DNA from: Amoebophrya sp. A120
Lineage: Eukaryota > Protista > Dinoflagellata
Reading direction: 5' to 3'
DNA: 64,000 bases
Assembly: GCA_905178155.1 (NCBI GenBank)
Contig: CAJINV010000002.1
Coordinates: 11,014,634 to 11,078,633 of the forward strand
The notes beneath the pieces are model-generated. The model saw only the letters and a program-made list of their open reading frames with translations. It was not told the DNA's origin and searched no databases. Both the position numbers and the translations under genes were made by a program. Shown piece by piece: positions 732-61,986 of the stretch; position 1 is the first letter of the stretch, and each line of letters begins with the position of its first letter.

Positions 732-1758
732 GCACCACGAGGACCAGCAGCCGCCCTTACAATGCCTTTGCCCAACATTTGCCCCAACATTTGGTGCAAA
801 TGCCATTTGGTGCATTTGCCCAACATTTGCCCCACATTCGCAGGAGCTTGGGGGGTTGTGTTTCATTTTTCGCAAGAAATACGCCAAACCGCCCTGCACG
901 GAGGCGGCCCCCAAATTGCCCCGCAGGTCCCAGGCGTTCCGGGGGAACTTTGCCCGCTCTCTTGTCTTTTGAGCGCTGGCCAGGTTCTGCGTGCGCGCGA
1001 TAGATTTGGGCACCTTGTGCCAGGAAAGTGCCCAAATCTTGAAGCTTAGCACCCCCGCGAGGCTGTTGGCCTGCCGCGGGCCCTTTGTGCAAGCCGAGAC
1101 GCTGGCCATTGGGGTCGACGTGGCCGCCGCTCTCTCGTCTGCTGGGCGCCGGCCAGGTTCTGTGCAAGATTTGGGCACCTTTTGCCAGGAAAGTGCCAAC
1201 GTCTTGAATATTAGCAATCCCGCGAGGCTGTTGGCCTGCCGCGGGCCCTTTGTGCAGTGCAAGCCGAGGCGTTGGCCACTGGGGTCGACGCGGCCGCCGC
1301 TCTCTTCCGCATGCTATAACGCAACCCCAAAAAGAAGCAGCTTTTTGCTTCTTTCAAGGTCCCCGGTCTGTATCTGCCGCCCGGGCAGAACCGCTGGACG
1401 CCAATCACGACGGCACGGCGCCGCATCAGAAAGCTGCTTGCTTTTGTCACAAAACTGAATCCGCCTTCTACGGCGGTCCTCGCGGGCCACGCCCGTGAGC
1501 CATTCCGCATGCTATGGCGCATCCCATAAAAATACAACTTTTCGCCTTCCCACTCTGTATCTGCCGCCCGGGCAAATGCATTTTCCGCAAAACACACTTG
1601 CACGGCACACATTTTTTTGTTTTGTCTTTTTCAAATGTTTTCAAAAGAAACATTTGAAGTTTTTTGCTTTGCATTTGCTTTGACTGTCATTTGTTTTGAG
1701 GGTGGGGGGGTATTTTTCATTCTGATAGCACCACGAGGACCAGCAGCCGCCCTTACAA
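732..1758. mobile_element. ~965-bp non-coding insert (763-1727) flanked by a perfect 31-bp direct repeat
   Basis: GCACCACGAGGACCAGCAGCCGCCCTTACAA at 732-762 and 1728-1758. The interior has GCCCAACATTT repeats (~768-835) and a ~170-bp tandem duplication (~966-1305). Confidence 0.7.
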
Positions 1759-2458: not shown

Positions 2459-2461
2459 TAT

Positions 2462-3155
2462 GTAGTGAGGTCACGAACGTTCTATCCTAGCTGTTTTTTT
2501 GACACCTCACCTGCAAAACGACGGGCAGTTTTCAAGCGGCCGGAAGGCTTTTTTGACATAAAAAAATTCCAATTATCAAGCGGCCGGGGCTTTGATAGCA
2601 AACAAGCCCGGTTGAAAACTATCGACTCGCACTTGATAAAACGACGCAGGGGAGCCGGTAAAAGGGGCGCCCTTCTGAGGCGCCCACCGCCTTGGTTTCT
2701 GGCGATTTGGGGCGCCCAAAAAGGGGCGCCGCAAAAATGCCAAGACGAAAAAAAGCGCGAATCCGCATGGTATGGGCCCCATTTTGGTCCACTTTTGGAG
2801 GTCGCAAAGCCGGCCACCAAAATCGGGCATTTGTAAGGCGGGGAGCAGGGCAAAAGTTGCGACTTTTCATACAAAAAAACTAAAAAAAACAATGGCCGCC
2901 AAAGTCCGAGAGCTAACCCGCATGCTATGGGCCCGATTTGGGGCGCCCAAGGGGCCGGCCCGGGCGGAGGCCCTTGGGGGCCATAGCATGCGGGGAAGGT
3001 TTTTCATGTCGAAACCAAATGGAGGCCACCTCTGGATCGAGATTTTCAGCGACCGCCGTGCCGTCGTGCATAACATTACTCACGGCGGAACGGTGGGAAG
3101 GGAAGTCGCGTCGTTTTTTGGAGTGAAGACAAAAAAACCGCCATGACCTCACTAC
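2462..3155. mobile_element. MITE-like element with TIRs, possibly a TA target-site duplication
   Basis: GTAGTGAGGTCA (2462-2473) and TGACCTCACTAC (3144-3155) form a perfect 12-bp inverted repeat with weaker subterminal pairing. The palindrome TTGGGGCGCCCAA occurs twice inside. No credible coding content. Confidence 0.65.
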
Positions 3156-7333: not shown

Positions 7334-9842
7334 ATGGGGGCGAAAGGCAAGCACAGTAAAAGCTATGGGGAGAACGCTTTTACAGGCTCCTCGGCGTTTC
7401 TCGAGGCTGTTGACGACAACAACGACCGACGGATGGCGAACACCGCGGAGGGCAGCGGTTCTGGCACGAGCAAGGGGGGCGTGTCGTCCGTTTCGTTTTC
7501 TCTCGCGGTGTCCCCGACGGGATCAAGTGTGAACTTGGGAACGTACAACAAGCACGCGAACACGTTGAAAGCGGAGGTGTTTCACCCGGGTAGCGACCTG
7601 GCGCCGGTGGCCTCGGGCAACTACAAGTACATCTTCCAGGACCAGCGATTTCAGTACGAGCGCACGGACTGGTTTTTCCACTCGCGCACGGTGGAGTGCT
7701 CCGGCCGCAACCTGGCCTGGGATTTGAACCTGTTCTCGTCCGCGCACGGGAACAGCCTGGATCCGGGCAGCGCGATTCCCGCCGGGGCCGTCTACGGCAT
7801 CTACGGCGCCTGGTTTTTACTCCACGTGCTGCTGGTCGTCGTGTTCAATCGCACAGGGCCGTCCTCTTCGCAGGGAGGCAACAAGTACTATGCGGGCTAC
7901 AAGCCGAAACAAAAGTTCCGAAGCTCCTCCTCCTCGGCGATGGGACCCGGGGGTGGCGCTGCGCCGAGTGCAGCGACAACCGCGGCCGATCGTGGCGCAA
8001 ACGAGTCGACGCATTTACTGGGCGCAAAGGAAGCGTTGGGACGAGGAGGGGGCGAAGCCGCGGAACAGGGAAAACTGTTGCAAAACAAGGACAATAAAGC
8101 CTCCGCCGCGGTGGAGAACGGCAAAGCCGGCCGTCGGAGCAGCCAGCTGCAGCGGCCCCAACCCGCCTCCGTGGGCGAGGTGTTCCAAATTGCCTTCACG
8201 GGGTCCCCCGAGGTGAAGACGCAACCGCGGATGTACTACCTCGACTACACGTATGGAAGCGTCAGGTTTGAAATCGTCAAAGTTGAAATAATTTGTAATG
8301 CATAAAATGCATGACCCGAGGCACGTGTGTTGCAGAGCAGGCAAGTGAAGCCTGTTTGGGGTTACAGCTCGAGCTGCTAAAGTAACATGAGAAAATCGCT
8401 CTTCTTTGCGTAAACAGCATGACAAAGTGGATCTAGGGACCGCCGAAATTTGTCTTGCGCCACTTAGAAACTGGGTCCCAACTGGCATCCATTTTATGCA
8501 TGACAAATTATTTCAACTTTGTCGATTTCAACTCTGACACATCCATAACACGCGGTTCGTTTGCGTCGCGGCGACCATTTGCATGCATCTGGATGGGTAC
8601 CGGTACTCGGTGCGCAACACCGGGTTCGTCCTGTTCTGGGTGATGCCCTTCCTGTTCCTGGTGTCCGGCATCGGGCTCGCGAAGAGCCAGCGCGGGTTTC
8701 CGCTGTACGTCATCAAGCTGTGCGTGCTGGCGCTGGTGGGGATGGGCCTCAACGCGCTGGGGCAGCTGATCGAGTTCGGGTCTCTAACGGGCAATCCCGA
8801 CCTGTGCGTGACCAGTGCAACCATCGCGCAGATGTGGTACGTCCTGGCGGTGCTGGTGGCGTCGGTCGTTTGGTTTCCCTTCAAGCTGATGCTGCAGACG
8901 GTGCGTGAGGCCGACGCGGCGGCGGATGCTGCGCAGCAAGAAGCCCGCGCGGGGACCCTCACGGACACGGACCAGGAGGGGACTGGGACCGAGGACCAGA
9001 TGGTGAACCGGGCGCAACTGAATCCTGAGGCGACCGTGTCGCGCACGCCCGCACTGAGTGCATTCTGCGTCTCCTTTCTCCTGTTTGCCGGGCTGCTGTT
9101 GGCGTCCGCGTTTTTGCCCGCCGAGGACGGCGGTGCAGCCAACCGGGACGAACGGCTGAATTGGGGCACGGCCCGTCCCTACAAGGTCTTCGGCTTTTTG
9201 GGCAGCGAACTCGCCGCGGGGCTGGTGCTGGTCTCGCTCACCCTGCTTACTGGGGACCGCGGGTACTTCTCGTGGATCTTTGGCAGCTGGGTGTTCTTGA
9301 GTCCCATTTTTTTTCCAGCCGAGTACCAATTCTTCACCCAGACGGTATTGATGTTCTTCTGGGCGGCGGTGACCTTTGAGAGGCCGCTGTACCACACGGA
9401 CGCGCTCCGAACCTGGTTCCGCGCATATTGGTTCTTTACGGCCCTGATCGTGCTCGGCCTCGTGTACGTGGACCAGATCGGCCGCTGCGACATCTACCCC
9501 GCGCTGTACCTCTGGGAGCGTGCCCGGTGGTTCGCCGCTACCGCACTGTTGTGTGTGATGTTCATGACAGGCACGTTTGCCAGCGACGACCCCTGTGGGT
9601 GCACCCGGTGGACCAACTATTGGGCCCTGTTCGCGTACCTTTCGTGCCAGTTCGTCGGGAACGTGTTTGCCAAACTCGGCCCCGGGAAGTGGTTTGGCGC
9701 TCCCGTTCTGTACTTGAGCATCATTCCCTTCATCATTTACTACCATTTCCTGCCGGACCGGCGGACCGCTGCGGCGCAAACCGGAGTCACGCGGGCAGCG
9801 CGCCGCGACACGGGCGATACCGGAGCCGTTCACAGCGATTAG
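7334..9842 (+). CDS. Acyltransferase-3 (OafA/MdoC-like) multi-pass membrane protein, 2 exons (intron 8251-8551)
   Basis: Removing the 301-nt introner joins ORF 7259-8305 to ORF 8583-9842 and gives RMYYLDYTRFVCVAATICMH...VMPFLFLVSG...QMWYVLAVLV, matching the AT3 motifs R..LD.LR......H, MP.FF..SG and HLW(F/Y)L. Many hydrophobic segments. Start codon uncertain. Confidence 0.8.
8252..8547 (+). mobile_element. Introner element with ~58-bp TIR and 5-bp TSD ACACG
   Basis: TATGGAAGCGTCAGGTTTGAAATCGTCAAAGTTGAAATAATTTG... pairs with ...CAAATTATTTCAACTTTGTCGATTTCAACTCTGACACATCCATA. ACACG lies at 8247-8251 and 8548-8552. The implied intron is GT...AC. Confidence 0.92.
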
Positions 9843-11696
9843 CTTCTCTTTGAAGCAATGGGATCAGAAGCAAGAATCAATATGATTCGTTCAACATGAG
9901 CATGATCATGACGTCTGAGAACCACGGGCACCGAAAGATGTTGTATGTTTGACTACCTAGTAGGTGTGAGTGACCGCTTGAGTTGGACGAGAACATGCAA
10001 AAGCTGGCAATGGGCGCACACTTCTAAGATCTATATCATGTGTAGAGTTGTTTCTATATTGATGCGTCTGCTCCTTTTTCTGATAAAGATAAACGTATAT
10101 AAGCATTATGTATCGAAACTAGGAAAATAAATACGAATACCAAGTTATTAACAGTTGGTGCACATGATCATCAAACAAAAACTGCATGATGTACAAATGC
10201 TGCACCTATTTGTATTCTGGTTCTGGTGCTCACCACTAGCAAATAAATTTAGTAATCCCAGTGAATCTCTTGTACATTACGCTTCAAAGTTATTTCGCAG
10301 ATGCACAGCAAACGTCAATACGATATTCAGCAAGTTGTAGACGCGCGTCCGTTTCTATTTTCTAATTTCGCTACCCCATTCGCGGAAATACAAGCGGGAT
10401 GGCGAGAACACTGGCAATGGATCTGCTGCTAGTTCGCATTGCGGAATTGAAAACGGAAAGCTGGCAGGGGTTCCACCATCGGTGCGCCAACTGTGATTGA
10501 GCATTTCGGTAAAGCAAATGTATTTGACCGACATGATATCACAATTCTTGTTCTCGCTCAGTGCAAGAAGAGAAATCTAGAAGCATTTCGATATCTATGA
10601 CACATCAAGGCAGGAACCGCCAGAAAAAAAATACTCAGAAAAGGAGAGTGTTTTTTACATATTTTGTTCACTTCTGCATCTGCAAGTTGTCTTTCAGATT
10701 GATAATTATGACATGCAAGCCCGCTGACGCTTTCTTGTGTCGAACACGAAGAGTCTCTATTAGTCCCTCATTGCCCGCCCTGAACTGTGTCTGTGTCGAA
10801 ACAAAACACAGGCCGCTCGTGTCTCCCGCGGGTCTGAGTCGGTGGTAGTGATGCTGATGTGCCACCACGTTGCAAGAAGCGTCTCTCTCGACTTTAAACT
10901 CGAGGTACGGTATCGGTTTTGTGTATTATATATTTGATATTTTTCACTGTCCTCGTGCAAAGACTGATATGTATCTGTATGATCATAGTGGCAATCACGA
11001 CTGCATTCGGTTCCAAGCGGTCTCAGTCGGAGGCTTAGCAGAAAGATTGATATCGGTTGCAAATAATATTCACGGAGTATTTTATTCGCATCGGTTTCAT
11101 TGCCCAGCAGCAGGGGTTCGAGTTTCCGTGCAGAAACTCAATCGGTCTCTCTCTATGCGCCTTTGCCGTAAAGGTAGAAGATTTGCATTTGTGCCTGTAC
11201 TCCTGGCGAAGGCGAACGAAGCGAGCTAATTACGTTCATCGGTCAAGCTGGTGCCATAGTTGGCCAGCCATGACGAAACTTACACGTAAGCTTTGTAGTT
11301 TCATCGGTGTAGTCGCTATCGCTTTGGCTTTCTGAGTCGTCGTCCTTCTCATCTTGATATTGGTATTGAAACAAAAAGATATTTACTAGCTCTTGCAGTT
11401 TTGGATTGTCAAACTCTCAGGCTCGAACGCTACCAAGAAGAACCCAGTATTGGTGTGAACGTACCCGACTCAATAGTACGTGGGTGATAAAGTATTATCG
11501 AGATTATACAAAATTGTGGAGCTCATCAAGAAAAGGTTCTCTTGTTGCTGTAAGATCTCCAACATCGCTTTAAAGTTTAATTTTATTGTTCCTCTTCACT
11601 TTCTCGCACGTCGCCCTCGCCGAGGACTGCTTTCGCTTCATTTACTCTTGATTCTGCTCTTTTGCTTTCCAAGAATATCCATATCGCTCGCTCACG

Positions 11697-14600
11697 ATGT
11701 TGCGCATCAGAATCGCCGCGGTTTTGAACGGCGTTGGGCTTTCGCGCGCGGTCGGGGTGAACTACGGCCACCGCAACCAGCATTTCCTGCAGCAGGAACA
11801 AGGACAAGATCAATTACACTTGCAGCATGAGTTTCTGGCCGATCCTGCTTGTCCCGCCGGGGCGCCGAAAGTGTACGTGTATAATCTTCCGGACAAGGAG
11901 GTGATCATATGAGAGTGCACAACTCGTCTTCCCGCGTTGTTTTCCTTGCGAAAATAAAATGTTTTTTCACTTCCGTATTGATATATACATCCTTCTTAGT
12001 GCTACTTCCGATCATCTCTTGAAGACACAGTCTGCAGGACGGGTTCCTGAAGCTCAAGCAGTGGCTCAGTAGAGGCGCGCGAATTAGTCATGCAGAAAAC
12101 GAGCCACAGGGCTAGGCCTAGGGCTAGGCCAAGCCCGATGGCTCTGTAGGTGCACCAGCTGTGGTGGATCATGCCCTTCCAATGAGGGGGTTGTCGTTGT
12201 GCACTCTCATAGCCACCCAATCGGCGTGCCGAGATCGTTTGGCGGGAAGATGCGTACTGCGAAAGAGCCCACCCGTCTGGCTCGGCCGAGGAACGCGATT
12301 GCGTCTTTGGTCCGGAGTTCTCGGTTGCTATCGAGGGGCAGCCAACGAACGTGACGCTTCGCACCACTGTACCGAAGTGAACAGTGTTTCTAACCCAGGA
12401 AACAAAGCGAGCGAAGCTGTACGACGGATCTGTGGTTACCGCCATAGGGACGGAGGCACAAAGTGTGTTGAGTTTAGAATCTGTCTTTACAAGTTGGGAT
12501 GGTAAGTTACATGCTGGCACTCGTGATGCAAATCCTGCACGATTCGCATTTGGATTGACATGTCGCCGTCTTTGGAAAGAGAGTGCGGCTTCTGGTATGT
12601 CTTTCACGATAGAATTTTAGTTTGCCCAAACCGTTCCGAGATGATGCGCCAATGCATTCGATCTCAATAAAAGGCGGATTTATAAAGAAGACTACAGGTA
12701 GTTGGCTTTGAAGAGGTGTCAAAGGTCACAGGACGAGATAGCTGTAGCTGTATCTGATCCTGTCGTGTCATCTTGGTGTCGGCCGGGGGCTGCTGCGTTG
12801 CGGGGACCCTCTCTGCCCGTGAAGGTTCAATTGCGCAGAGGCCTTCCAAGCAAGCCATACAATCAATGTCAGCGACAGCTTTGCTCTCGCAAGAACTCCG
12901 GGTTACTAGAAGCCAGATTTATTCAGAATTTTATCCCTGACGGTGCCCAGGTGGCTCCAGATTTTTGCTCTGACAGTTTTACACTGTATACGGTAAGGAA
13001 TCGCTTATCTTCGGTGCCCCGGCCTGTCAGGGCAAAAATTTTGGAAAAATCTGCCGACCACCGCCGCAAAAATTTTGGAAAAATCCGGCTTGGCGGGCCT
13101 GCCCGGCTTCCGGGGGTAAGGCCGGGGGGGCCGCCGGGGGTCGGTTTGGGGGAGGGCGGGGCCCCGGGCCGGTAGCCTCCGGTCGGTGCGCCATGTGATG
13201 CCGCTGTTTCCTGCGGGCCAGGGCAAAGGCGCCCCGGGGTCGGCGAATGCCGGCCGCCCGCAAGTTTCCTGCGCTGGGGCCCGCGCGACAAAGCTGGCCG
13301 CCGAAGGCGGTGGCGGAAAGCTTGGTGGCCTGGTGTGCGGAACAGCGGCGGGGCCGCTCCACAGATTTCCCGAAAGGCGCGCCATTGGCGCTGTGTGCCG
13401 CCTGCTGCTTTCCTTGGAAAGCACAGCCGCCAGTGGCCACTGCGGTTCAGCGGCGCAGCACTTTCGCTGTGGGCAGGGCCGCAGGGCCTCTTTGGTTGTT
13501 GCCTTCGGCCGCGCCCTGCCCCCCCTCCGCGTGTCGAATGTTAGAGCTGGCGAGGCGCGCGGGCGATTGGCCCGGCCCTGGCGGGAGGGATTCGGCTTGG
13601 GTGGCTGCGCCGGGCGAGACCGCCCTGCTGGGGAGAGCGACCGCCCTTCGCCTCGGCGTGCGGCCCAGCCCTGCCCTCTTTCGGATGTGGCAAAAATACA
13701 CGGGCCCCCGGGCAGGAAACGTTTTGCCGGTGGGGCTACGGCCTCCCGTTTAGGCGGGGGGAGGTTCGGGGCTTTGCCATGCCCAATATCGGGGCTCGCG
13801 CTGGGGGCGCAAGAGAGTGTGGCTCCTCGGATGCCTACACTCAGCATGTGGCGCCCCGCTTGGGCGCCCCCTGGCGTCGCCAAAAAATTTTTTTTTTCTA
13901 GAAAAATAGCGCAAAACCAGAGTCCACATATCCATCGGGTCCGATCACTTCAACAATCAATGTCAGGGACAGCTTTGCTCTCGCAAGAACTCCGGGTTAC
14001 TAGAAGCGTGTTGCAGTTTGATTTTCACCACAGCGCGCTCGTGTTGGCTTCATTGAGGTAGGGCAGTCTGGCGCCTGGTAGGGTGTGTGGGTCTGTGGCG
14101 CCGCCAAGCCTCCCAGTGAGTCTGCGCTCATTGGTGTGCAAGCTTCTGCCACGATGTTTCCTCGTTTCTTGACACACCAAAAAAATTGGGCTTGCAGCAC
14201 CTGCCGGAAGCGTCTCAGCTCATGGCTGGGACTGTTTCTTCCAGAAGATGCGCAATTGTTGTGCCGCACACACCTTCACTCTACGAGGACGGGCCACAAT
14301 CCCATAGCGATTTGTTGTTTTTCCCGTGTTTGGTTGATTCGGGATTGAAAGCTGCCGGCCTCTGTTGATTCGCGTTTGAAATTGCCTCGACTTCTGTGAT
14401 TCACGTTTGAAATTGGTCCAAATGCCTTGATTCGCCACCATTCCAGTACTCTGGTTCCCCGGATCTTCGCTTCTATTGTTTCTTCTCCTTGTTGAAGTCA
14501 TGCGGGGGGGCCACTAGAAAAGGCCTTTGCTTGCCGGAGATCCCGCCGGAGTTCAGACTTTGGCGGCGCTATGGTGTGCGGTGCTTTTTTGGGGTGAGGT

Positions 14601-17226
14601 GGCAATTGACTCGGTAGCAGGCTTCCCACGTCCTAGGGATTAGCCATTGGAAGTTACAGAGGGCCCACTCCATGGACCAGAGACAGATCCTCGCCCGAGT
14701 GTGGACTGACAGGCGCACTTTTTTGGTAGCATGCAATGTGAAGCACCTCCCCACCCCTTTGAATCACCTCCCCACGCATTACCCCCCCACCCGGATCACC
14801 TACCCACCTCCCCTGCGTCACCTTGTGACGCGGCCGCATCACCGCCGTAACAAACGGCCGGAGGTGATGCAACAACAGAGCCTGCGGCGGCCTTGGTTGT
14901 TGGTTGTTAGTTTAGCCTATAGGATTCAGGGTTGGTTCGGGGTTTTTTTAGGGTCGTCGAGGCCAGCCGGCGCGATGCCGCCGGCGCGCCGGTATGGCCT
15001 CGGCGGTTCTTTCTTCGTGTTGTTCCCCCCGTGGCCCGCCTTTGCCCCTCATCCTTTGGGCCTCAGCTTCTTCCTGGTAGGTCCTTATCCGGTGCGCGAG
15101 TTGCAGCGCGCAGCAGGTTGCGGACTTATATATTGCCACGCACGTTGTGGCAGATATCTGGCCGCATGGCCGGGAGTAGATGGCGCAGCAGCAAGGCTGC
15201 AGTCCTCCGGGGGTCGTCGCGTTCTGGTCGGCACTCATCAAGAGCTTCGCCGACCACGAATCGAGGAGAACGACGTGGGGAAGTGCAACGCAGTGGGGAG
15301 GTGCTGGAAGACGGGGATGTGGGGAGGGTGGAAAATACCTCTCCACCACTGGGGAGGCACCTCCCCACACGCGGGGAGGTACCTCCCCAGGGTGGGGAGG
15401 TAGGGAGGTGGGGAAGTTGATCCGTGGGCAGGTGATTCACACCATAGCCCACTTTTTTTCTTCGAGGGCCGAGTCGCTGTAGGTGGTAAGCTCTTGAAAA
15501 ACGCATCAGGTGTGTGCTATTTGAACATGCCGCAGAAGGTTGGCGCAATTTCAAAACGCCGGCTTCGACTTTTTTTCGCATTGAAACGCCATGAGATTTG
15601 GTCAGTAGGCCGAAAGCCCAACATTTTCAAATTGGGTTGAAATTCGTTGAAACCGCCATGAGATCTGGTTTGGTTTGGAGTTAACAGCTTTGCTCTCGCA
15701 AGAACTCCGGGTTACTAGAAGCACTTTGCATTTTGATACACTGACCAGTTTCGAAACGGCCGCATCTTCCAGTCCCGCCTGACGCGCACGGCTTGCCGGG
15801 TGACCGATGCTACACTCGTATCACAGAAAAAAGCTAGTATGGCACCAGCAGAGTTTTTGCGGAGAAAAAAGATGCAAGAGTGACAAACCACTAGCACACA
15901 AGTTAGTATTCGAAGTAGCATTGTCCACGACCACGCCAGCACATGACACCAGGAACAAGCTTCATTTTTTGTGTCGCAAATGCTAACTTGCTCTTGCTAC
16001 TACTAGCTCGTTTCTGTGTGATAACTCGCCGATGTGTTTTTCGTGCCTATTTGGCGTGAGAACCGCCAACCGGACCCGGCCCAGTGCCCGACGGCCGACG
16101 AAGTTTTGGCTGCTCTTCCCCACTTGTCGGACGCCACGGCGAGCAAGCACTTTCTGATGTCTCCGCGTGTTGGGGGATTGTACGACGACGTCTGCGATTT
16201 TTGGAACAGCAAAAAGCCGCTGATCAAGAAAATCCGGAAGATGGCCCTGGAAGCCGTCTCGTGCGGCAAGGAGGACCGGCCGGAGCGTGATATTCCGTAT
16301 CCGACCCTGGGCGCCGGTTTGAGCGGTCCGCAAGTCGATCAACTGTTCGCCACCGTCGATGCGACGCAGGAAGCCGGCCGCACGGTTCTGGTTATGGGCG
16401 CGTTGGGAAAACGGGTTGGCATTGCCTCTGCGAGCGTCCGCGACCGCTGGAACGGACAGTGCGTATCCCCCGCAAAGGTAATATTTATCGTTTGCGCATG
16501 AAAATTAAATTCAACGTACTTCTTGGACCTTATGTATGCGCAGCGGTATTCGTTGTATAACCCTGGAGCTGCAGCTTCGTTCCAGTTGTGCAGCTGAAGT
16601 TCATACATGCAGACTTAGACATCACATGGAACAGGACAGGGCTGGGACGTGGTGAAAGAAAGGTGATCTGGTGACATCAAATTTGATGTATGTAGCTGTT
16701 CAAGTGGTGCAAATGTGACGCGCGATACCAGAAAAATATTATCCTTTGCACTGGATAGCGCGGCGACAGCGATGATTGCGTTTTGGTGGACCCCACGGTG
16801 AAAGGCATGCTCCCTGGGTTGGTCCAAGTCATGATGCGTTCCACGTTTTGCTTGCAGCCGGAGGGAGACACTCCGTCTCGCAAGGGGTTGCTGGACAGCT
16901 TGGCGCTGGGATGCATTCCGGTACTGTCGTCCGCGAAGCAGCAGGTGCTGTGGCGGTGGCATCTGGGAGACTGGGAAGATTTTTCTGTTCTGGCGCCAAA
17001 GTCTACCACGGGGAACGCTTCGTCCGCCTCTTGCTGCGGCGGCGGTGAGGGAGGGGATGAAAACTACAGCGTGGTCGACTTCCTGCGAGGGATCGACGCG
17101 ACCACGATCGCCAACCTGCAGGCCGGCGGCCGGATCGCGCGGTCGAAAATCATCTCGCACTGGACCGACACCGATTTGAACGACGCAATTACGGTCACGC
17201 TGCAAGCCATAAAGGATGGCAAATGA
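11697..17226 (+). CDS. GT47/exostosin-family glycosyltransferase (MUR3/KATAMARI-like), copy 1; exons 11697-11900, 12213-12368, 15743-15817, 16028-16462, 16759-17226 (~445 aa)
   Basis: Motifs KVYVYNLP, TDQF...IFQSRL...C...ADVFFVPIW and STFCLQPEGDTPSRKGLLDSLALGCIPV. All introns are phase 0. Differences from copy 2 in exon 3 are mostly synonymous. Confidence 0.88.
11901..12212 (+). mobile_element. GT-AG intron with a perfect 15-bp internal TIR (introner-derived)
   Basis: TATGAGAGTGCACAA (11908-11922) pairs with TTGTGCACTCTCATA (12197-12211); the same repeat is present in the paralog. Confidence 0.8.
12859..14007. mobile_element. GC-rich 1039-bp insert (12914-13952) flanked by a 55-bp direct repeat
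   Basis: ACAATCAATGTCAG(C/G)GACAGCTTTGCTCTCGCAAGAACTCCGGGTTACTAGAAGC at 12859-12913 and 13953-14007; the insert is absent from the paralog. Confidence 0.8.
13969..15722. mobile_element. 1676-bp insert (14008-15683) flanked by a 39-bp direct repeat
   Basis: ACAGCTTTGCTCTCGCAAGAACTCCGGGTTACTAGAAGC at 13969-14007 and 15684-15722; internal CACCTCCCCA/TGGGGAGG repeats; absent from the paralog. Confidence 0.8.
15819..16023 (+). mobile_element. Introner with TSD ACTCG; non-canonical GT...TC intron
   Basis: TATCACAGAAAAAAGCTAGTA pairs with TACTAGCTCGTTTCTGTGTGATA. ACTCG lies at 15814-15818 and 16024-16028. An in-frame TAA at 16022 argues against use of the upstream AG. Confidence 0.88.
16464..16757 (+). 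mobile_element. Introner (intron 16463-16758, GT-AG)
   Basis: TATCCCCCGCAAAGGTAATATTT pairs with AAATATTATCCTTTGCACTGGATA; flanks are GTGCG and GCGCG. Confidence 0.85.
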
Positions 17227-18953
17227 GCAAGCTGCTCACTATGAGACCTCTCCGCCGACGGCTTATTTCAGCCGCGCGTTCTTAGTATATGGATATGATG
17301 TGGGATATCCTATGTTTTTTTTATTAATTTTTGTCCGGCAGATGATGCTGTGGAGGAGAAAAATAAAACAGTGCTGCCAGATCTGATGTCTTCCTTTTGT
17401 TTTGCAGTCGAATCATGTTCTTTTGTTTTGTCGCTTTGATAGCTATTACAGTACCGAAGAAGCTTGCGCCATATTTATTGTTTTTATCTTTCCTCCTCGA
17501 AGCAGTAATACATAGTATGTATATGATGAACCTAATTTAATATCGTCATCGTGATTCTTCGATTTCTTTACACGATGAAGAAAATGAGTGGAGGTGACTC
17601 AGGTCCCTCCAGGTCCTGCGTTTTCTTCAATTTTCCATCAAGCTTTCTGTTGCTCTTATGCCTTTCGCGTTCATGCGGCAAGACGTAAATCTAAATGCAT
17701 GTTGACGTGAACAAGGCAGATTCATCGAACAATGCGAAGTTATTTTGTCATTTTTGTCGCACGACCACGAGCTGCAGCATGGCATGTAAATCATGATCAT
17801 GCCCTCGTGGTTAGGTTTTCCCATTCTTACCTAATAATGGTTCGTGATGGTAAAGCCAACATTTTCAACTTTAGTGACCGCCTATGCTTACACGGCTATC
17901 CAAAGATACACCCTGCCGCCTCCCTCAGTCAAATGAAATCCATGCGCCGTCACATAGTACCTGACGAGGTAGAAGAAGCGCTCGGGTGGATGCATCAGGA
18001 GCATGAGCTACCAAGATTTTATCACTTTTGTTTACGACCACAAAAGCATTCGGTAATTCTTCCCGGATCTACGAATTTGCCATTGCCTTTACATTCTGCC
18101 AGATCCAGCTGGTAAACATGTCAGGGCGCCAACGCTAATAAGAAGAACTTCTTCTCACTCAAGAAGACGAGCGTCCGTTTCTATTTTTGCTGCGCCGTTT
18201 GTATAATCATACACAAGCGGCATGGCCATCCCCATCGCCATGGCGAGGGGAGCGCTGGCAATAGAAGTGGATCTTCTGCTAGCTCGTGGGGCAAATTTTG
18301 AAACGAAAAGCCCGAAGTGGATCCACAGTCGGCGCGTCGACTGTGAAAGATAAAGATTGAGCATTTCTGATGTAAGCAAAAGTACCTGAAAAGAACCACG
18401 TTGACATGGCGGTCAGGATGAGAAATTCACAGAGCATAGGTCGTCTCGATCGTAGAACACCTCAAGGCAAGGAAGGGCAAAAAAAATTCTTTCTCTCCGG
18501 CAAAGGAGGGTGAAAGTGTTCAGATTTTATATCTTTCTCACTGCAATTTTGCTTGCAGATACTTACTACATTTTCACATGCACGTGCAATCTCGCTTCCT
18601 TGTATAGAAGTCGAACACGACGAACACGAACAGTTTGCGTGAGTACTACGTTGCCGCACTGTCTCGAAAGAATACACGGGCCGCTCAGGTCTTCCGCCAG
18701 TCTGAGTCGGTGGCGATGATGGGTACCCCGTCGCGAAAGACGCCAGAAACTAAACTCCCTGTCCCTTTCAACTTCAAATTCGAGTATCGGTTTTGCGTAA
18801 TTCCATATTGTTCGTGCAAAGGTCGGTATGTTAGTAGTAACAATTAACATTTTATCCAAAATGATAAATTGCCAATCGCCGCTGCACTGGGTTCGAAACG
18901 CCTTTAATTGGTGGAGGCTCAGCAGATGCAGAAAGACCGCGATCTTCGGTTGC

Positions 18954-21809
18954 AAATATTCACCAAGCATTTTTGCATCGGTTTCATCTTGTTGTTGTGT
19001 GGGAGCACATTTCGGCAAGGCCCCCACGTCGGATTTGTGCTCTGGCCGGCGACAGGTCTGAAGACCTCGCGCAAAATCATCCGACGTCGGGGAGATAAAG
19101 AAGTGCGCCCCTAGGATTTTCGCCGCGTCGAGACCTGGGATCATAGTTCTGCAAAGCCCCCGCCTAAGATGATGCTGTGCGGGTTTTTCTGTGTTTCAAG
19201 GTCAGAGCACAAACTCGGATAGCACTCTCGTGCCCTGGCCTGCAGAAGTGTGCTCCTAAGATTTCTTGATATCGAACTCAAATCCGAGAATTCCTCAGAT
19301 GCAAGCTCACATCCGAGAACTCCTCACATGTGAGCGCACATCCAAGAGTTAGAAGGTCAGAAGAACTGCGCAGCATAATCTTACGCGACAGGCTTACAGC
19401 AGTGCGCTCTTTGGATTTGTGTGTTGCGCCTCCAATTGCCTCACTTGGAGTCGCGGTTCAAACTTTCACACGCAGAGCGCGGCGATTCGCAAGTTTAGCC
19501 GAACCGGCGTAGCGATTTTGTTTCTGGTTTTCTGACATTGTGTGCCCATCACAGGACTCCTGTGATAAGTAGGCACGCAACACTTTGGGGGGGGCCAGAA
19601 ATAAAGCTGCCGTGCCACTTTGGCTGTACTTGCGAACTTTGTTGCCTTGCGCGTGACAGTTCGATCCGCGTGTCCAAGCGAGGTGTATGTAGACGCAACA
19701 CGCAAACCCTGGGAGCGAATTTCTGTGAGTCACCTGAATAAAATTGGCGCTCAGAGCGGTTTTGCTGGCCAGGGCACAAATCTTACGCAGGCAGCCTACA
19801 GAAATTAGGTCTCAGGACCCCACATCCGAGAACTTCTCGGATGGGGCTTCACATCCGAGGAGTTCCCGGACGTAGACTCACATCTAAGAACTCCTCGTGT
19901 GTCAGCTCACATTCGAGAACTTCTCGGATGTGCGCTGCCACCCCAGGAGGTAGTATTTGATGTGGCGAAAATCCTTGGGAACAAATTGCTGCAAGTCACC
20001 TGCGTAAGATTTGTGGTCCGATCGGCAATACCTATTGGAGCACAAAACCTACGCAGGTGAGTTACAGATATTAGCTCTCAGGATTTCCGCCGCATCACGA
20101 AATTCTTGACGCAGCGAAGATCCTGGAAATAATTTCTGAAAGCTACCTGCGTAAGATTTGTCTTCTCACTGGTAATACCGATCTGGGCACAAATCTCATG
20201 CAGGTGACTTACAGAAATTAGTTCCCAGGATTTGCGTGCTGCGTCTCCAATCGCCTCACTTGCACACGAGGATCATCAGTGTGTCCAAGTGTGGCGACTG
20301 GAGACGCAACACGCAAATCCCAGGAGTGCATTTCTTTGAGGCACGAACGCTGAAGCTGTAGGCGCGCGAGTTCTGATGTGCTCTTACGGAAGAAAGCTCG
20401 CGCAGCAGCTTTTTCCTCCTGGCCTTCTACAAGTGTGCTCCTGAACACATGTACAGAGCGATCTGCTTTTTCTTCTAGGGAGAAGACGCAGCTTCTGCTA
20501 GAAGCTGCGTTTTCTAGAAGAAAAAAAGTCTGCGTCTTCTACAGGAAGACCAGTCTTCTAGAAGAAGACAAAACTTCGCGCCTTCTTCTAGAAAAAGACG
20601 CAGCTTCTTCTAGAACAAGAAGCTGCGTTTTCTTCTAGGAACTCAGTTTCTAGAAGAAAACTTCCGGAAAAAGTGTTCGGAAAGGGGGTTTGCAAAGGGG
20701 TCTTCAAAGGGGTCGCGCAAAGTGCCTTAATCACGAGCTATAAAAGGGTCAGCGAAAGGGGTCAGCGAAAGGGTCTCTGGAGAGGGGTTTCCGCGAGACC
20801 TTTTCAAAAAGAAGTCAAGAAGACTTCTTTTAGAGTCTAAAAGAAATCCAACGGATTTCTTTTAGACTCTCAAAGGATTTCTTCTAGAGACTCTCAAAGG
20901 ATTTCTTCTTCTTCTATTGCACGCCCGGACGGATCAGAGCACAAGGCTTACTAGCGCTTTTTGAATGTAGATTTTACCTTACCTTCCTCTTGCTTGCCTT
21001 TTGTTTTCCCCGGGCCCTACTGGCACCAAGCAGTATTTTTTGGGATTGGGGCGCGACACCTTTCGGTGTTGTATTATCCTTTTCGGGTTGGGTATGTTCA
21101 CATAGAATTTTTAGGTTCAGAACATGCGTTTTGCGCGCTTTCTCTGATCAGGCCGTCCTACGCCCCACCGCCACATCTTCTTCCCTACGATTCTACGTCC
21201 TGTTTCCGCCCCTGTCCGACACCAGCGTCGATAGGGTTTTGAGGGTCTTAGGGTTTAGGATATTTGATTTTAGACTCTCAAAGGATTTCTTCTAGAGTCT
21301 CAAGGTGCCTCAGAGGCGCCTTGAGATTCTAGAAGAAATCCTGGGAACTAATTTCTGTAAGTCCGTTGCGTAGGATTTGCATTCAGGTCGGGATTACCGG
21401 TCGAAACGCAGATCCTACGCAACCTACTTACAGAAATTAGTTCCCAGGATCCCGCATACAAGACCTCCTCGGATGTCAGCTCACATCCGGGAACTTCGCG
21501 GATGTGAGCTGCCAGAGAACTTTCACACGCAAAGTGCCGAACTTTGGCGCTTTGCTCGTGGAAGTTCGATCCGCGTGTCCAAATGAGGCGATGTAGAAAA
21601 AAGTCGGAAATCCTGGGAGCTGATTTCTGTAAGTCGCGTGCGTAGGACGTGTAGTCAGACCGGGACTATCGGTCGAAACGCAGATCCTACGCACCTGCTT
21701 CAAAATTTTTGAAAGCCGAAGCTTTTAGGAACTGCTCTGGGAACTAATTTCTGAAAGCTCTAAAAATATTCACCAAGCACTTTTGCATCGGTTTCATCTT
21801 CTTGTTGTG
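18954..21809. mobile_element. ~2.76-kb palindrome-rich insert (19000-21763) flanked by a 46-bp direct repeat
   Basis: AAATATTCACCAAGCA(T/C)TTTTGCATCGGTTTCATCTT(G/C)TTGTTGTG at 18954-18999 and 21764-21809. The paralogous site (~11062-11100) is single-copy and uninterrupted. Confidence 0.82.
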
Positions 21810-22406
21810 GGTTCAAGTTCAACCCACGGACCCCAAAATCGGTTTCTCTATATGTTAGAGAAGGTTTGCATTCGGAATTCCTGTATTGGACAACGCACTA
21901 AGCGATGTACGTAGTTTTGTCGGTCACTCTGGCGTCGTAAGTTTTCTGGCCAAACATGGCGAAGCTTACTGGTGAGTGAAAGTTTTGGTCGGTGTAGTCG
22001 GTTTTTCGTTTGTAGTTGTGGCCTACGGGCCTTAGTTGGGATTATTATATGAAAAACAAAAAATGGATATGGATATGGAAAAAAGTTATGCTCTACTGAC
22101 GCCAGTCCCAGGCCCAGCTCGCAGTTGCACTTTTGCCAAACTCTCACTCAACACTACCAACAAGAGCCAAATTTTTGAAATGGATGTACCCGAATAAGCA
22201 CGTGGGCATTATCGACGAGATATAGCAGTGAGAGTCGAGGACGACCTTAAGAAGTAGTCCTCTCTTGCTGCAACATTATTTATTACCGATGTAATTAATG
22301 TTGTTCCTCTTCCCGTACACCGTCGAGAACTGCTTTTGCTTCATTTATTGATTTATTTTCTTGTTGTTTCCAAGAACTAGAATATCCATATCGCATATTG
22401 ATCAAC

Positions 22407-24771
22407 ATGTTGCACATCACAAGAATCGCCGCGGTTTTGCACGGCCTCAGGCTTTCATTTGTGGCTGGGGTGAACTACGGCCAACGCAATGAGCATTTCC
22501 TGCAGCAGGAACAAACTCAAGTACACGTGCAGCATGAATTTCTTGCTGTCGGCAGGGCCTCGCCAACTGGTTCTACTTGCCCGACCGGGTGGCCGAAAGT
22601 GTACGTGTACGATCTTCCGGACCAGGAAGTGCTGATATGAGAGTGCACAAACGGTCGTCTCGCGTTGATGTGATGTTCCATGCAGAAATAAGATGTTTCA
22701 CTTCGTCCATCACGCATGATATATACCAAAATCCCTCTGTGTGCCCCCGACATCACATTTATTTCAGGATGACGGGATCCGCCCAGGTAACGCCAGAATA
22801 GATGTGCGCGAATTTGTCATGCAGAAACGAGCTGCGTGCCGAGCGGGAGCCCCAGCCTGACGCTATAGTTAGTGCGCCAGTGGTGGGTCATGCCCTTGCA
22901 ATGAGCAATGAGGGGATTCATTGTGCACTCTCATAGCCACCCAATGGGCGTGAAATTGTTTGGCGGGAGGATGCGTACTGCGAAAGAGCCCACCCGTCTG
23001 GCTCAGCCGAGGAACGCGATTGCGTTTTTGGTCCGGAATTCTCGGTTACGATCGACTCGCCGCCAACCAACCTGACGCTTCGCAGCACTGTATCAACCTG
23101 AAAAGTGTGCCTGACTCAGGAGCGAGCGCGAAAGAATGTTTGCCATGGATTTATCACGACTGCCACACAGAAATAAAAGATGGCTCTAGAAGATTCTATC
23201 GGATTTTGCCTTGTCAACTTGGTTTCGTTCGGGTGAAGTGCCAAGCCCGGCGCAGAAGTATCTTCTCTTGAGCCATGCAACGAAGGCTTTGCTCTCGCAG
23301 TTCCGAGGTACTAGGAGCACTTTTTATTTTGATACACTGATCAGTTTCGAAATGGTCGCATCTTCCAGTCACGCCTGACCCGCACGGCCTGCCGAGTGGC
23401 GAATGCCACACTCGTATCACAGAGAAGAAAGCTAGTATAGCAGAGTGTTCGCAAAATCAAAAACAATGCAAGAGTAATTTATGCATGAAGATGACCACTG
23501 CTGCACGACGGCTCGTATTGTTCAGAACAGCACTTGGTCTGCACTTGCCGACGACACGAGATTACATTTTTTGCGTTGCACTTGCTCCTGCTTAATTCTG
23601 TGTGATAACTTGCCGATGTGTTTTTCGTGCCTATTTGGCGTGAAAACATCAATCCGGACCCGGCCAAGTGCCCAACGGCAGAGGAAGTTTTAACTGCTCT
23701 TCCCTACCTATCGGATGCAACTGCGAGCAAGCACTTTCTGATGTCTCCGCGTGTCGGTGGATTGTCCGACGATGTCTGCGATTTTTGGAAAAGCGACGAG
23801 CCGTTAATCCAAAAAATCAGAAAGCTGGCCCTGGAAGACGAATTTTGCTGCAAGAGGGAGGCGTGTATGGTGGACTTTTCGCGACCGGAGCGTGCGATTC
23901 CGTATCCGACCCTTGGCGGCGGTTTGACCAGTACGCAACTCGACCACCTGTTCGCCACCGTCGATGCAACGCAGCAAACCGACCGCACGGATTTGGTCAT
24001 GGCCGCTCTCGGGAAACGGGACTGCTGCAATGCCGCTTCGGGCGTCCGCGATCTCTGGAGTGCACATTGCGTATCCCTCGCAAAAGAAATGATTATTCGT
24101 TCTTTGCACGCAATCACGAAAATTTGAATTTCAATATGTAGTACTTGCACATCGTAGTTTTCAACTTGGTTCCGAGTCCAACTGTTCATGTAGACTGAGA
24201 CACGAATATGATTATGAACTGGAACTGGAAGATCGGTTTGGTGATACCAAATTTGATGTAGCTGTGTGAGTGCTGAAGATGTGACCACGCGCGTCGACAC
24301 CAGAAAATTATTATCTTTTGCATTGGATAGCGCAGCGACAGCGACCATTGCGTTTTGGTGGACCCCACGGTGAAGGGCATGCTCCCTGGGTTGGTCAAAG
24401 TCATGATGCGTTCCACGTTTTGCTTGCAGCCGGAGGGAGACACTCCGTCTCGCAAAGGGTTGCTGGACAGCCTTGCGCTGGGATGTATTCCGGTCCTTTC
24501 GTCCGAGAAGCAGCAGAAGCTGTGGCGATGGCATCTGGGAGACTGGAAAGATTTTTCTGTTCTGGCGCCAGGTTCTACCACGGGGCAATCCTCCTGCTGT
24601 GGCGGTGGCGACAGCGTGGTCGAGTTTCTGCACGGGGTAAACGCGACCACGATCGCAAAACTGCAGGCAGGCGGTCGGGTTGCCCGGACGAAAATCATCA
24701 CGCATTGGACCGACACCGACTCGAACGATGCAATTACGGTCACGCTGAAAGCCATACAGGATGGAAAATGA
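22407..24771 (+). CDS. GT47/exostosin-family glycosyltransferase, copy 2; exons 22407-22628, 22937-23089, 23339-23413, 23612-24070, 24331-24771
   Basis: Same motifs as copy 1 (KVYVYDLP, TDQF, FFVPIW, STFCLQPEGDTPSRKGLLDSLALGCIPV) and the same four TIR-bounded intron positions (22629-22936, 23090-23338, 23414-23611, 24071-24330). Confidence 0.88.
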
Positions 24772-26555
24772 GAGAGCTGTTGCACGACACCGACGGCTTA
24801 CTGATGATTTATCTCACAAGTAATAGAACAACTACAGCGGCACCGCGCGACGACTACACTGAAGCGGACCACGCTGAAGCGTTAGTTCCTCTAGGAGTTG
24901 AGACTTAATACGAAAGTTCTACTCGAAGTGCGTGCTGTCCTTTATTTCTAAGCATTTATGATTTATTAGCATTCAAAAAAAACAAAAAGTAAGAGGTATA
25001 ATCCAAGTTATTTTGTTAACATGTTCTCGGCATGATCAACATGATTGAACTACAGATTCAGGTACGTAAAAAAGTACATGGGGCTATGAACACGCTGACG
25101 CGTGAAGGACGAAGCACTAACATCACAGGTTTTTTTAGCATGCTCATATTGATCAGTACTAACAAGTAGAAGTACATAGCCTCAGGTTGTACTTGCGTGA
25201 ATCTATTGGTGATTTTCGTGGTCGACAGCTCGAGACCAATTTCTGATTCGTAACATGAGCCATCATGTAGCATTCGCGAGAGGAGGATTCTGGTTTTTTA
25301 ACCTGTAACTACAAAAGGTGATTAAAAAAGAGCGGCGACGAGGTAGACTTTCTTTCACGCACAAAAAGAGCGTCGACATGACGACTCAAGTACCTAGATG
25401 CTATATGCGGCGTTCTGAATCTGATGGAAAGCGAAAGAGAATAGAGAAGGGAAAGGGTGCCCCTGCTTCGCCGCCTGTAGGAGACCAACCTTGATGTCGT
25501 TGTCTAGTATTGCTGCTGCCCACGTGTTCTCCTCGTAGTTTTTGTTTGTCGTGCTTATCCTCGCCATTGCAGCTGTGACTTTCGCAGTCGTCATCGACTC
25601 GCTTCGAGGGGGATGGTTATTGGTATTATCGATCACGAAGACGATTGACGATGTCAGAGCCAGCTTTTCCATAGCAGCTGCAAGTTGAGCCGTCTACCAG
25701 ACGGAATTATCTGTCTGCCTCAGTGCCGTCTATTTTTTCGGAAAAAAAATGACAGGAGAGAAAATGAAAATCGAAGTCCTTGTCACGTTGATTGAGCGAG
25801 GACACAGAGACAGAATTATGTAGGCGGTCGTGATCTCTACTTGCGATGATGCCAAATGGCCATAATATAGTGTCGTGTTGTCTCGAAAAAATACGGAGTT
25901 CAGTATTGAATTTGGTAAATAAGTCGTCGAAGAAAGCTAAAGCAACTCGAAACAAGGAAGTTAGTTGGTAAATTGTTGTTACAATTATGATGAACGTCGA
26001 AAAAGTAGGCAACTTTCTTTCCCCTAGCAATGAAGTAGAAGTGGATGCCTGCGAGGTGCTGGGCTGCCGAAATAAAGCAGCACACCAGGCGGAAGTGAGC
26101 CATCTTAGGATCATCGTTGACCGCGCCGTGCCAACCGACACAAAAACGATTCCGTTTCCGGTTTCATCCCCGTGGTGTGCGAGCGCGATTGTTTAAACAT
26201 TCAGTATTCTCCCCAGGATTTCGATCTCCGCGCACCGCTGCTCCTTCTTTTTTCTCTTTCACGACCTCTGTCTACTATGCGCATGCCGCTGCTGCTACTT
26301 CTTCTGCTCTTCCGGTTGGGCCTTCTGAGTCTGTTACCCCGAGGACGAATCAAAACCTACCGCCATCCACCGGGCGCATCGTCAGCCTTTGACGTGTTTT
26401 TCGGCTTCGCATAAAATTAACTTTTGCATTATGTACGAAACTACAATTTCTACACGACCTGGTGTGGTAGACCAGTGCAGCAGATACAGATTCAGCAAGC
26501 GCATGATGTATGAAGATGCTGGGAAAGGTTTTGCAAGGCATAGTTCGGGGAGGCA

Positions 26556-41814: not shown

Positions 41815-42306
41815 GGATATTTGTTTCTCGGTGCCTATCTCGACATCGCAAAAAAGAAGAGACTCGCAAGCGACAGCAAGCAGGCGGCAGGATCGACGTT
41901 ACGGATCAAAAAAAATACTCCTCGGAGGCTAATCGTCTATTGTGCGCTCTTCGGAGACTAGATCTTACCGATCCAGTGTCGATTCAATGAACAAACCGAC
42001 TTGTATTTTATTCTCTTCGGAGCCTAGCTGTTAATGCTTCTTCGGAAGCTAGATGTGATCTGGATATTTGATCCGCGGAGCATATCTCGACATCGCAAAA
42101 AAAGAAGCGACTCGCAAGCGACAGCAAGCAGGCGGCAGGATCGACGCTACGGACCAAAAAAAAATATGCTCTTCGGAGACTTTACGACTATTGTGCGCTC
42201 TTCGGAGACTAGATTTTACCGATCCAGTGTCGTTTCAATGATCAAGCCGATTTGTATTTTATTCTCTTCGGAGCCTAGCAGATATTGCTTCTTCGGAAGC
42301 TAGTTG
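41815..42306 (+). repeat. Two tandem ~247-bp units rich in C(UUCG)G hairpins; probable structured 3' UTR
   Basis: 41815-42061 aligns with 42062-42306. CTCTTCGGAG or GCTTCTTCGGAAGC occurs at 41947, 42013, 42036, 42169, 42198, 42264 and 42287. Confidence 0.85.
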
Positions 42307-59656: not shown

Positions 59657-60019
59657 TGATCAAACCTCCCGTGGTCCGCGTTGGCATGTGACGCTAGCTA
59701 CAGAGTCGAATTGCATATGCATTGCCAGACCGTGTCAAGAGTTATTCCTTCATACACTTACACTTTTTGTACTAAAGAATGAAATGCATATCCCTTTCCT
59801 TTACTAGCCTTATCCCGCTTCCCGTGTCCAGTAACCTGCAGACTTAATAGTATTCCGCTAGATGAATAGCAGCACTCAGCGCGTCTCTGTAGAGAATCGC
59901 TGTCGGCGCTTCAGCACAGGCAGGCCCATCTGCCGGCGATTTTCAAAGCGTCAGAACGGCGTCGGCACGATCCGGCACCGGCCGGCGCGGCGGGCAGGTT
60001 GGCCTTTGCCGTCATCTTG

Positions 60020-61185
60020 CACGCTGGCACCGGCGTGGCCGCGATCTGGCGGCGGGGGGCGGGCATGGTCGGGCACCGGCTTGGCCAGGGCCCGACAGCG
60101 GCCGGCGTTGCCAGGGTCCGGCACCGGCTTGGGCATGATCGGGCACCGGCACGGTCATGCCCATGACCTGGCACCGGCGTGGCCACGACCTGGCACCGCC
60201 TTGGCCATGATTTGGCTGGCACCGGCTTGGCCGCGGCCTGGCACTTGCTGCCATGGCCATGATTCCGCACCGGTTTGGCTATGCTCTGGCACAGGCAGGC
60301 AGGCAGGCTTGGCCATGATTCATCTGGCACCGGCTTGGTCACGACCTGGCGCCGGCGGGCGCGGCTAGGCCATGATCTGGCACCGGCTTGGCTTTGTCAT
60401 GAGATGATCTGGCCCCGGCTTGGCCATGACTTGGCGCCGGCTTCGGCCTGGCCACGACCTGGAACGGGCCTGGCCATGATCTGGCACCGGCTTGGCCATG
60501 ATATGGCACCGGCTTGGCCATGGTCTGGCGTCGGCCTTGCCGCGACCTGGCACCGGGCGGCTTGGCCATGATCTGGCGCCGGGTTGGCTTTGATCTTTCT
60601 CATCAGGCGCTGGCCTGGCCATGATCTCTCTGGCACCCACCGGCTTGGCCACGATCTGGCACCGGCTTGGGCATGATCTGGCACCGGCTCGCCCACGACC
60701 TGGCACCGGCTCGACAGGCTTTGGTCATGATCTGGCCCCGGCTTTGCCTCGACCTGGCACCGGCTGGCTCGGCCCTGACTTGGCACCGGCTTGGCAGGCT
60801 TTGGCCATAATCTGGCACCGGCTTGGCCATGATCTGGCACCGGATTGGCCATGATCTGGCACCGGCTTGGCCATGATCTGGCACCGGCTTGGCCATGATC
60901 TGGCATCGGCTTGGCCACGACCTGGCACCGGGCGGCTTGGCCATGATCTGGCACCGGCTTGGCCATGATGTGGCACCGGCAGGCTTGGCCATGATGTGGC
61001 ACCGGCAGGCTGGCAGGCTTGGCCGTGATCTGGCACCGGCGGGCTTGGCGGGCTTTGTTCGGCCGTGATCTGGCACCGGCCTTGCCGCGACCTTGCGCCG
61101 GTTAGTTTGGCCCTGTTTGGCACCGGGTTGGCCATGATCTGGCACCGGCCTGGCAGGCTTCCTCTGGCCACGACCTGGCGCCGGC
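60020..61185. repeat. Degenerate 22-bp minisatellite (GGCCATGATCTGGCACCGGCTT)n
   Basis: Dozens of imperfect copies read directly. Confidence 0.95.
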
Positions 61186-61189
61186 TCGT

Positions 61190-61962: not shown

Positions 61963-61986
61963 AGAAGCTTGGGCACTTTGTCTGCA

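Follow-up and report, generated by a model that had tools for sequence, protein, structure and literature searches.

Two unrelated inserts with long target duplications stacked at one base in an introner-type intron of Amoebophrya sp. A120

The window, which is the whole 64,000-nt stretch of Amoebophrya sp. A120 DNA that was analysed, contains an exostosin (GT47) glycosyltransferase gene whose last exon matches Pfam PF03016 (E=2.5e-13) and whose second intron carries the insertion site described here. The features of this locus, in the coordinates of the window, are as follows.

11697-17226, plus strand: host gene, exostosin (GT47) glycosyltransferase, with an approximate start (codon read from the sequence), recognised by Pfam PF03016 and by splice joints in run X3
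12365-12420, plus strand: first CACTG (12365-12369) followed by the left inverted repeat of the introner-type intron, supported by the joint 12364>15739
12859-12913, plus strand: target copy A1 (55 bp), with the ancestral base C at 12873
12914-13952, no strand assigned: insert 1 (1039 bp), GC 0.65, apparently non-coding, single copy in DNA run X1 and absent from run X3
12914-13053, plus strand: hairpin of 140 nt, the stem of which starts at the first base of insert 1
13953-14007, plus strand: target copy A2 (55 bp), with a single mismatch, G13967
14008-15683, no strand assigned: insert 2 (1676 bp), GC 0.56, apparently non-coding, both ends single copy in X1
14008-14022, plus strand: first 15 nt of insert 2, 11/15 identical to the flank right of A3, which is the outer end of the introner inverted repeat
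14737-15441, no strand assigned: interior of insert 2, which lies between imperfect inverted repeats and has diverged relatives elsewhere in the genome
15684-15722, plus strand: target copy A3 (39 bp), exact
15723-15743, plus strand: outermost 16 nt of the introner's right inverted repeat, followed by the second CACTG (15739-15743)
23086-23339, plus strand: the same introner in the paralogous gene, with one target copy and no insert

The host intron is delimited by ~50-nt inverted repeats enclosed by a CACTG direct repeat. A transposase would cut at the end of an inverted repeat, whereas the insertion point here lies 16 nt inside the right one, which the target copies overlap; the preliminary description had placed the site within this repeat, and the distance from its outer end is now fixed. 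The inverted repeats, the 5-nt direct repeat and the non-canonical ends agree with the portrayal of Amoebophrya introners in passages of PMC7789003, as does the TAT-N7-A-run with which the repeats of the paralog begin. Singletons number tens of thousands among the introners of Amoebophrya (PMC7789003, in part), and some introner families have been assigned to non-LTR elements of unknown superfamily (PMC12130899, in part). Run X3 shows the complete intron removed by splicing (joint 12364>15739, depth 1236, 5 ambiguous bases), and for this reason the gene tolerates the added 2.8 kb. Within its inverted repeat, an introner-type intron has accommodated 2.8 kb without losing its splicing, since A3 restores the outer part of that repeat. 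The exostosin gene and its upstream region are tandemly duplicated (10340-17240 and 18165-24780, 60-75% identity), and DNA run X1 contains additional paralogs in which some of these introns are missing. Two more introner-type inverted-repeat introns are present at 58494-58752 and 8252-8547, the former starting like the repeat of the host intron.

Target copies A1 and A2 are identical at 54/55 bases (C12873 versus G13967), and A3 is a perfect match to the final 39 bases of both. All three terminate in TAGAAGC, so that the right boundary falls at one and the same base while the left starts differ, exactly as first reported from the sequence. The inserts that they separate show no BLAST match to each other, and no end-to-end terminal inverted repeat was detected in these two or in a third insert described below, which bears out the initial account of two dissimilar inserts of 1039 and 1676 bp. 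No terminal A/T run, poly(A) or simple-repeat tail was found in any of the four inserts of the window, loose short repeats at the left end of insert 3 being the only feature returned by this check. In shuffled sequence, direct repeats of at least 20 bp occurred in 0/10 shuffles (longest 18). The tandem paralog aligns across the empty site, where the single diverged target copy noted previously could be placed at 23278-23318 (75% identity), and this comparison identifies C at 12873 as ancestral. The three repeats overlap the right inverted repeat of the introner and are represented once in the uninserted paralog, and are therefore duplicated host DNA; they are a target duplication with one fixed and one variable boundary, and neither an LTR nor an att site travelling with the inserts. 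The likeness between A2 and A3 continues for 15 bases rightward past A3 (50/54 in total). A reading of the insert 2 duplication as a plain 54-bp repeat with four changes was rejected, as the change from 39/39 to 11/15 is abrupt and insert 1 joins exactly where the identity drops.

The contigs of DNA run X1, assembled from short reads, reproduce this structure. Those covering 12254-12903, 12884-13997, 13978-14773 and 15693-16054 show no differences from the window at depths of 36-50, and their ends coincide with the break points that a k=31 graph predicts for the window. As the window may have been assembled from X1 itself, this run is not fully independent evidence. The junction of insert 2 with A3 is missing among the X1 pieces listed (a further 154 are unlisted) and its bin has a depth of 44.9; the junction of A with insert 2 is seen independently in run X3. 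Insert 1 forms one unbranched X1 contig with a depth of 43.1, flat over four 200-bp bins, and no relatives of it at 85% identity occur among those X1 records that the alignment tool returned. Both ends of insert 2 are likewise single copy in X1 at 85% identity, and its internal part (14737-15441) reaches depths of 106-312 versus 42, with loose ends at 14737, 15176 and 15277.

Run X3, which we take to be RNA and which shows spliced joints, was aligned over 11500-17500. Introns of the host gene are covered at ~8-10x and insert 2 at 4-13x, while insert 1 has a depth of 0 in 5/5 bins. X3 contigs end at 12904 and start at 13969, as predicted for A1 joined directly to insert 2 and not for the full form; this prediction assumes that the low-depth edge to the exon is pruned. 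The X3 pieces listed at the locus show no differences from the window, indicating a very close line. X3, the one run in which this was observed, contains a form that has insert 2 and lacks insert 1; contigs can display neither the join itself nor its level, DNA or only RNA. This form retains the C allele at 12873. Run X7 has no intron coverage and is thus silent on insert 1.

The hairpin that opens insert 1 folds far better than expected from its composition (z = -6.38), and equally good folding was obtained in 0/200 shuffles. At the start of insert 2, the 11/15 likeness to the displaced flank stops one base short of the introner end. It is one of nine junction comparisons, the other eight of which reach at most 6/15, and random pairs reach 11/15 at P = 1.6e-4 per comparison. 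As judged from their reading frames, the inserts look non-coding. A first Pfam scan matched 2/26 ORFs (exostosin and one sub-threshold zinc finger), and a second matched 3/42, all below the cut-off and treated as chance; in all, the 42 scanned of 72 listed ORFs (at least 70 aa) and six more gave only sub-threshold, unrelated matches. No match to a reverse transcriptase, endonuclease, transposase or Rep was obtained in the scanned ORFs, Pfam being unable to recognise the Replitron Rep. Rfam searches gave 11, 33 and 6 matches, none at the gathering score and mostly hairpin look-alikes of microRNA families, and ARAGORN detected 0 tRNAs or tRNA-derived heads. The hammerhead core motif, a pseudo-LTR and an evident short terminal direct repeat are all absent from inserts 1 and 2, and a motif search for spliced leaders, telomeres, hammerheads and Pol III boxes returned nothing convincing.

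Two further inserts with the same type of flanking duplication are present elsewhere in the window.

732-1758, no strand assigned: insert 3 (763-1727, 965 bp) with exact 31-bp flanking repeats at 732-762 and 1728-1758
18954-21809, no strand assigned: insert 4 (19000-21763, 2764 bp) with 46-bp flanking repeats, 44/46 identical

The empty site of insert 4 was established by alignment with the paralogous upstream region at 10980-11300. Hairpin units in direct and inverted orientation make up insert 4 as a patchwork, and a similar motif occurs near both of its ends. A relaxed scan of the window (score of at least 16, 250-9000 bp apart, excluding the diagonal of the paralogs, the interior of insert 4 and the 60-62 kb satellite) yielded six pairs, five of which derive from the four inserts and one from a 250-bp tandem duplication; among five shuffles, one gave a single pair. 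Together the four inserts amount to 6444 bp, or 10% of the 64-kb window. Their duplications of 31, 39, 46 and 55 bp are identical at 168/171 paired bases, implying from sequence identity that the insertions would be young, and the target was intact, with no bases lost, wherever an empty paralogous site allowed comparison. The four inserts have no match to one another over 18 nt and no common ends, and no clear common motif was found at the right cut of the three target sites, where the bases preceding the fixed (left) insert ends are GC, AA and TG. A weak, post hoc pattern is that the last base of each of the four inserts is A and that R-C-A opens three of the four duplications. The right end of insert 3 (1712-1727, minus strand) begins with TAT-N7-AAA like introner repeats; counting both strands, the window has 34 occurrences of this motif, and it has no partner at the left end of insert 3.

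In the comparisons made with known families, the inserts did not conform to any of them. The traits of TIR DNA transposons, MITEs and introners were not found: inserts 1-3 have no end-to-end inverted repeat, and the duplications measure 31-55 bp. Orphan inserts are found here as singletons are among Amoebophrya introners, but in comparison with the introners of PMC7789003, as far as characterised in the sections consulted, the inserts lack terminal inverted repeats and have duplications ~10x longer, and so are not introners. Among non-LTR elements, R9 of rotifers (target duplication of 126 bp) and Dualen-4b_cRei (>50 bp) combine a long, variable duplication with one precise boundary, as seen here (PMC9977147, in part), and CRE/SLACS elements insert at the same site with variable duplications, a re-use of the site that is also seen here (PMC12278014, in part). 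The variable length of the duplications (55, 39, 31 and 46 bp) is thus shared with this class. However, R9, Dualen and CRE are coding families with a reverse transcriptase, an endonuclease and shared 3' ends in the portions of PMC9977147 and PMC12278014 that describe them, while the present inserts are apparently non-coding and unrelated, with no parent seen; CRE moreover has a poly(A) tail and a conserved multicopy target (PMC12278014, same portions), while here the inserts are tail-less and the three targets unrelated. A reverse transcriptase or endonuclease ORF, a remnant of one or a tRNA head was not detected in the scanned ORFs or by ARAGORN, and copies with a shared 3' end and truncated 5' ends were not found in X1 at 85% identity for insert 1 or for the ends of insert 2.

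Penelope-like elements, including non-autonomous Chlamys elements such as MRC1, are nick-primed and generate variable duplications, and their tandem and inverted internal arrangements resemble insert 4 (PMC8557442, in part). In contrast to the elements covered by those parts of PMC8557442, inserts 1 and 2 have no pseudo-LTR, and no hammerhead and no RT or GIY-YIG remnant was detected; the hammerhead ribozyme is absent from some Penelope-like clades. The 30-40 bp 'tail' of these elements is confined to a single end, and the same parts of PMC8557442 do not present it as a copy of the target. Replitron-1 and Replitron-N1 of Chlamydomonas have a fixed left end, a variable duplication extending leftward, non-autonomous forms of ~1 kb and a terminal hairpin, all as here (PMC10288648, in part), and the Replitron/Helitron combination of one precise end with a variable duplication is therefore present. 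The same parts of PMC10288648 attribute to Replitrons insertion after RG, many near-identical copies and a 6-bp terminal direct repeat; the first two were not seen at these loci, and no such repeat was evident in inserts 1 and 2. Bacterial restriction-modification insertions consist of unrelated cargo without mobile-element ends, flanked by unique duplications of 45-47 bp and matched by an empty site elsewhere, as in the present case; their cargo encodes a nuclease (PMC2853133, in part), whereas here the cargo is eukaryotic, apparently non-coding and stacked at one base.

The reading that we tentatively prefer, at a probability of roughly 0.45, is nick-primed insertion, likely through reverse transcription by a non-LTR or Penelope-type enzyme supplied in trans and acting twice at one nick. 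From the observed target duplication we infer two nicks and a fill-in. The plus strand would be nicked after TAGAAGC, and the 3' end at this nick would prime synthesis of the insert, the reverse transcriptase acting in trans on unrelated non-coding RNAs. The minus strand would then be nicked 39 or 55 nt to the left, and filling-in of the long 3' overhangs would duplicate the target. A fixed right and a variable left boundary would arise because the plus strand is nicked at one base while the other strand is cut 31-55 nt leftward. Because the sequence left of the nick is kept, it would outlive each insertion and the same base could be cut again; with insert 2 arriving first, the expected order is A1-insert 1-A2-insert 2-A3. 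Inserts 3 and 4 were likely made by the same activity. Of the processes that leave such boundaries, target-primed reverse transcription is the best known; its two separate nicks give rise to variable duplication lengths (PMC8557442, in part), and non-LTR retrotransposons have been reported from Amoebophrya genomes (PMC7789003, in part).

The fixed right and variable left boundary, the four clean, long duplications, the derivation of the repeat from the host introner and the X3 form with insert 2 only all speak for nick-primed insertion. Against it stands the missing parent of insert 1, as the 54/55 duplication implies a close parent if the insert was copied and pasted; if insert 1 arrived after the split of X1 and X3, this is even harder to explain. 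The parent could have been lost by segregation in an outcrossing population, or the DNA could have been moved or taken from outside. The lack of a tail, of shared ends, of a match to a reverse transcriptase, endonuclease, transposase or Rep, and of a ribozyme or tRNA head also weighs against this reading, the three targets without a clear right-cut motif are awkward for one sequence-specific nickase, and nothing in this model leads one to expect that the first 15 nt of insert 2 resemble the displaced flank. Of the earlier proposal of target-primed insertion with a specific first nick, the nick-primed geometry therefore fits, while the reverse transcription step finds no support in a tail, shared ends, an enzyme or a parent of insert 1.

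The missing parent of insert 1 favours instead the capture of DNA at staggered breaks, an explanation that we regard as unlikely overall but with a real chance of being correct. Nicks 30-55 nt apart would leave 3' overhangs, to which loose, relocated or foreign (host or viral) DNA would be joined, or from which it would be copied by strand invasion, and fill-in would duplicate the target. Such capture accounts for unrelated, orphan and tail-less inserts, and insert 2 would begin by invading a related introner end, in keeping with the 11/15 match of its start to the displaced flank, which stops at the end of the inverted repeat; the remaining eight of the nine junctions, at no more than 6/15, do not share this likeness. 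Tandem duplications are known to arise from breaks with 3' overhangs (PMC8355091, in part), and the bacterial cargo cited above has 45-47 bp duplications without a mobile element. Random breaks would not, however, strike one base twice, and X1 contains no donor at 85% identity for insert 1 or for the ends of insert 2. Four events with clean, long duplications and inserts of 1-2.8 kb are also unlike the repair captures described in the available part of PMC2671141, which in primates reach at most 619 bp (proximal cases) and have duplications of 4-21 nt in a minority. Break repair at a hairpin hotspot, also raised in the preliminary description, is not needed, as inserts 3 and 4 bear the same signature at unrelated, introner-free sites. 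We consider it rather improbable that an HUH/Rep enzyme transposed the inserts as single-stranded DNA, in the manner of Replitron-1 and the Helitrons of Chlamydomonas. In such a process a nick would set the exact position of one end, the other end being resolved with a duplication of variable length, and the Replitron-1 geometry of a left end at a fixed base with a variable duplication to its left (PMC10288648, in part), the strong hairpin opening insert 1 and the hairpin-rich insert 4 are all consistent with this; the bases before the fixed ends are nevertheless not RG, the inserts share no termini, a parent is expected of copy-and-paste elements and was not seen in X1, and the scanned ORFs include no Rep gene recognisable by Pfam.

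A compound event would remove the need for a second cut at the same base, and hence for a sequence-specific nickase, and has a small chance of being the correct account. A nick-primed polymerase would have made a copy of insert 1, switched to the target overhang as its template as far as the nick, switched again to insert 2 and then closed; insert 1 would later have been deleted in one line through recombination of the two 55-bp copies, or would be removed at the RNA or cDNA level. The sole mismatch lies in the middle copy A2, which under this model is wholly new synthesis, C being ancestral, and the C allele of the X3 form is that expected from a deletion within 40 identical bases. The X3 form nevertheless demands a second, rare event, template switching by the reverse transcriptase during library preparation would presumably not erase every trace of a 1-kb insert at 10x, and the parents are still missing. 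The integration of circles at an att-like site, or a repeat that is the LTR of the inserts, is very improbable and close to excluded, although one boundary is shared and 15 nt of insert 2 resemble the target beyond it. The repeat belongs to the inverted repeat of this very intron and differs by 25% from its paralog, so that an exact copy on outside circles is not expected; moreover, the lengths of the two duplications are unequal, the repeats around inserts 3 and 4 are unrelated, and in X1 the repeat connects only to its three local neighbours among the pieces listed. Mis-assembly, named at the outset as a possible source of the pattern, can hardly be credited. No single long read or contig spans the whole stretch, yet X1 contigs cross the listed junctions without differences, at single-copy depth and with the predicted break points, and the junction of A with insert 2 was recovered from X3 as well.

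Long variable duplications are already known from several retroelements, Replitron-1 and bacterial restriction-modification cargo. What is new here are the two further unrelated inserts with long duplications in the window, the orphan status of insert 1, the form without insert 1 in X3, the hairpin of insert 1 and the flank likeness of insert 2. In the papers searched, we found no account of unrelated non-coding inserts flanked by 30-55 bp duplications, either in Amoebophrya or in other dinoflagellates. Most repeats of Amoebophrya genomes are unclassified (PMC7789003, in part), and terms for transposable element classes are absent from the searchable text, figures excluded, of the supplement to that paper. 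It is possible, although doubtful, that a common, as yet undescribed insertion pathway places unrelated, parent-less, hairpin-rich DNAs of 1-3 kb into re-usable nick sites with duplications of 30-55 bp; such a pathway would be defined by its scar and not by shared ends, its DNAs would possibly be moved or host-derived, and it would have acted recently enough for cultures to differ and account for about a tenth of the window. Genome-wide searches can use a target duplication of 30-55 bp as a simple signature, and the class that it would define is one missed by homology tools. Should cultures of one strain indeed differ in insert 1, it may be possible to catch the activity in the laboratory, and this would reveal the template (RNA or DNA), the enzyme and the reason why one base was struck twice.

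Several other features of the window were recorded. A GC-rich, hairpin-like intergenic stretch at 2460-3130 is similar in style to the inserts, and no long flanking repeat was found around it. At 231-452 there are five near-palindromic units of ~35-45 bp, the core of which is similar to two motifs close to where insert 2 ends on the right; this palindromic motif had 0 matches in metagenome and viral contigs. A 3136-codon ORF (32203-41613) without a significant Pfam match is followed immediately downstream by the ~250-bp tandem duplication (41836-42307). The block at 59845-62240 consists of 22-, 8- and 13-bp satellites, with a 15-bp inverted repeat at its edges (14/15) that has a TTAA start on both sides, and possibly represents a non-autonomous TIR element that targets TTAA.
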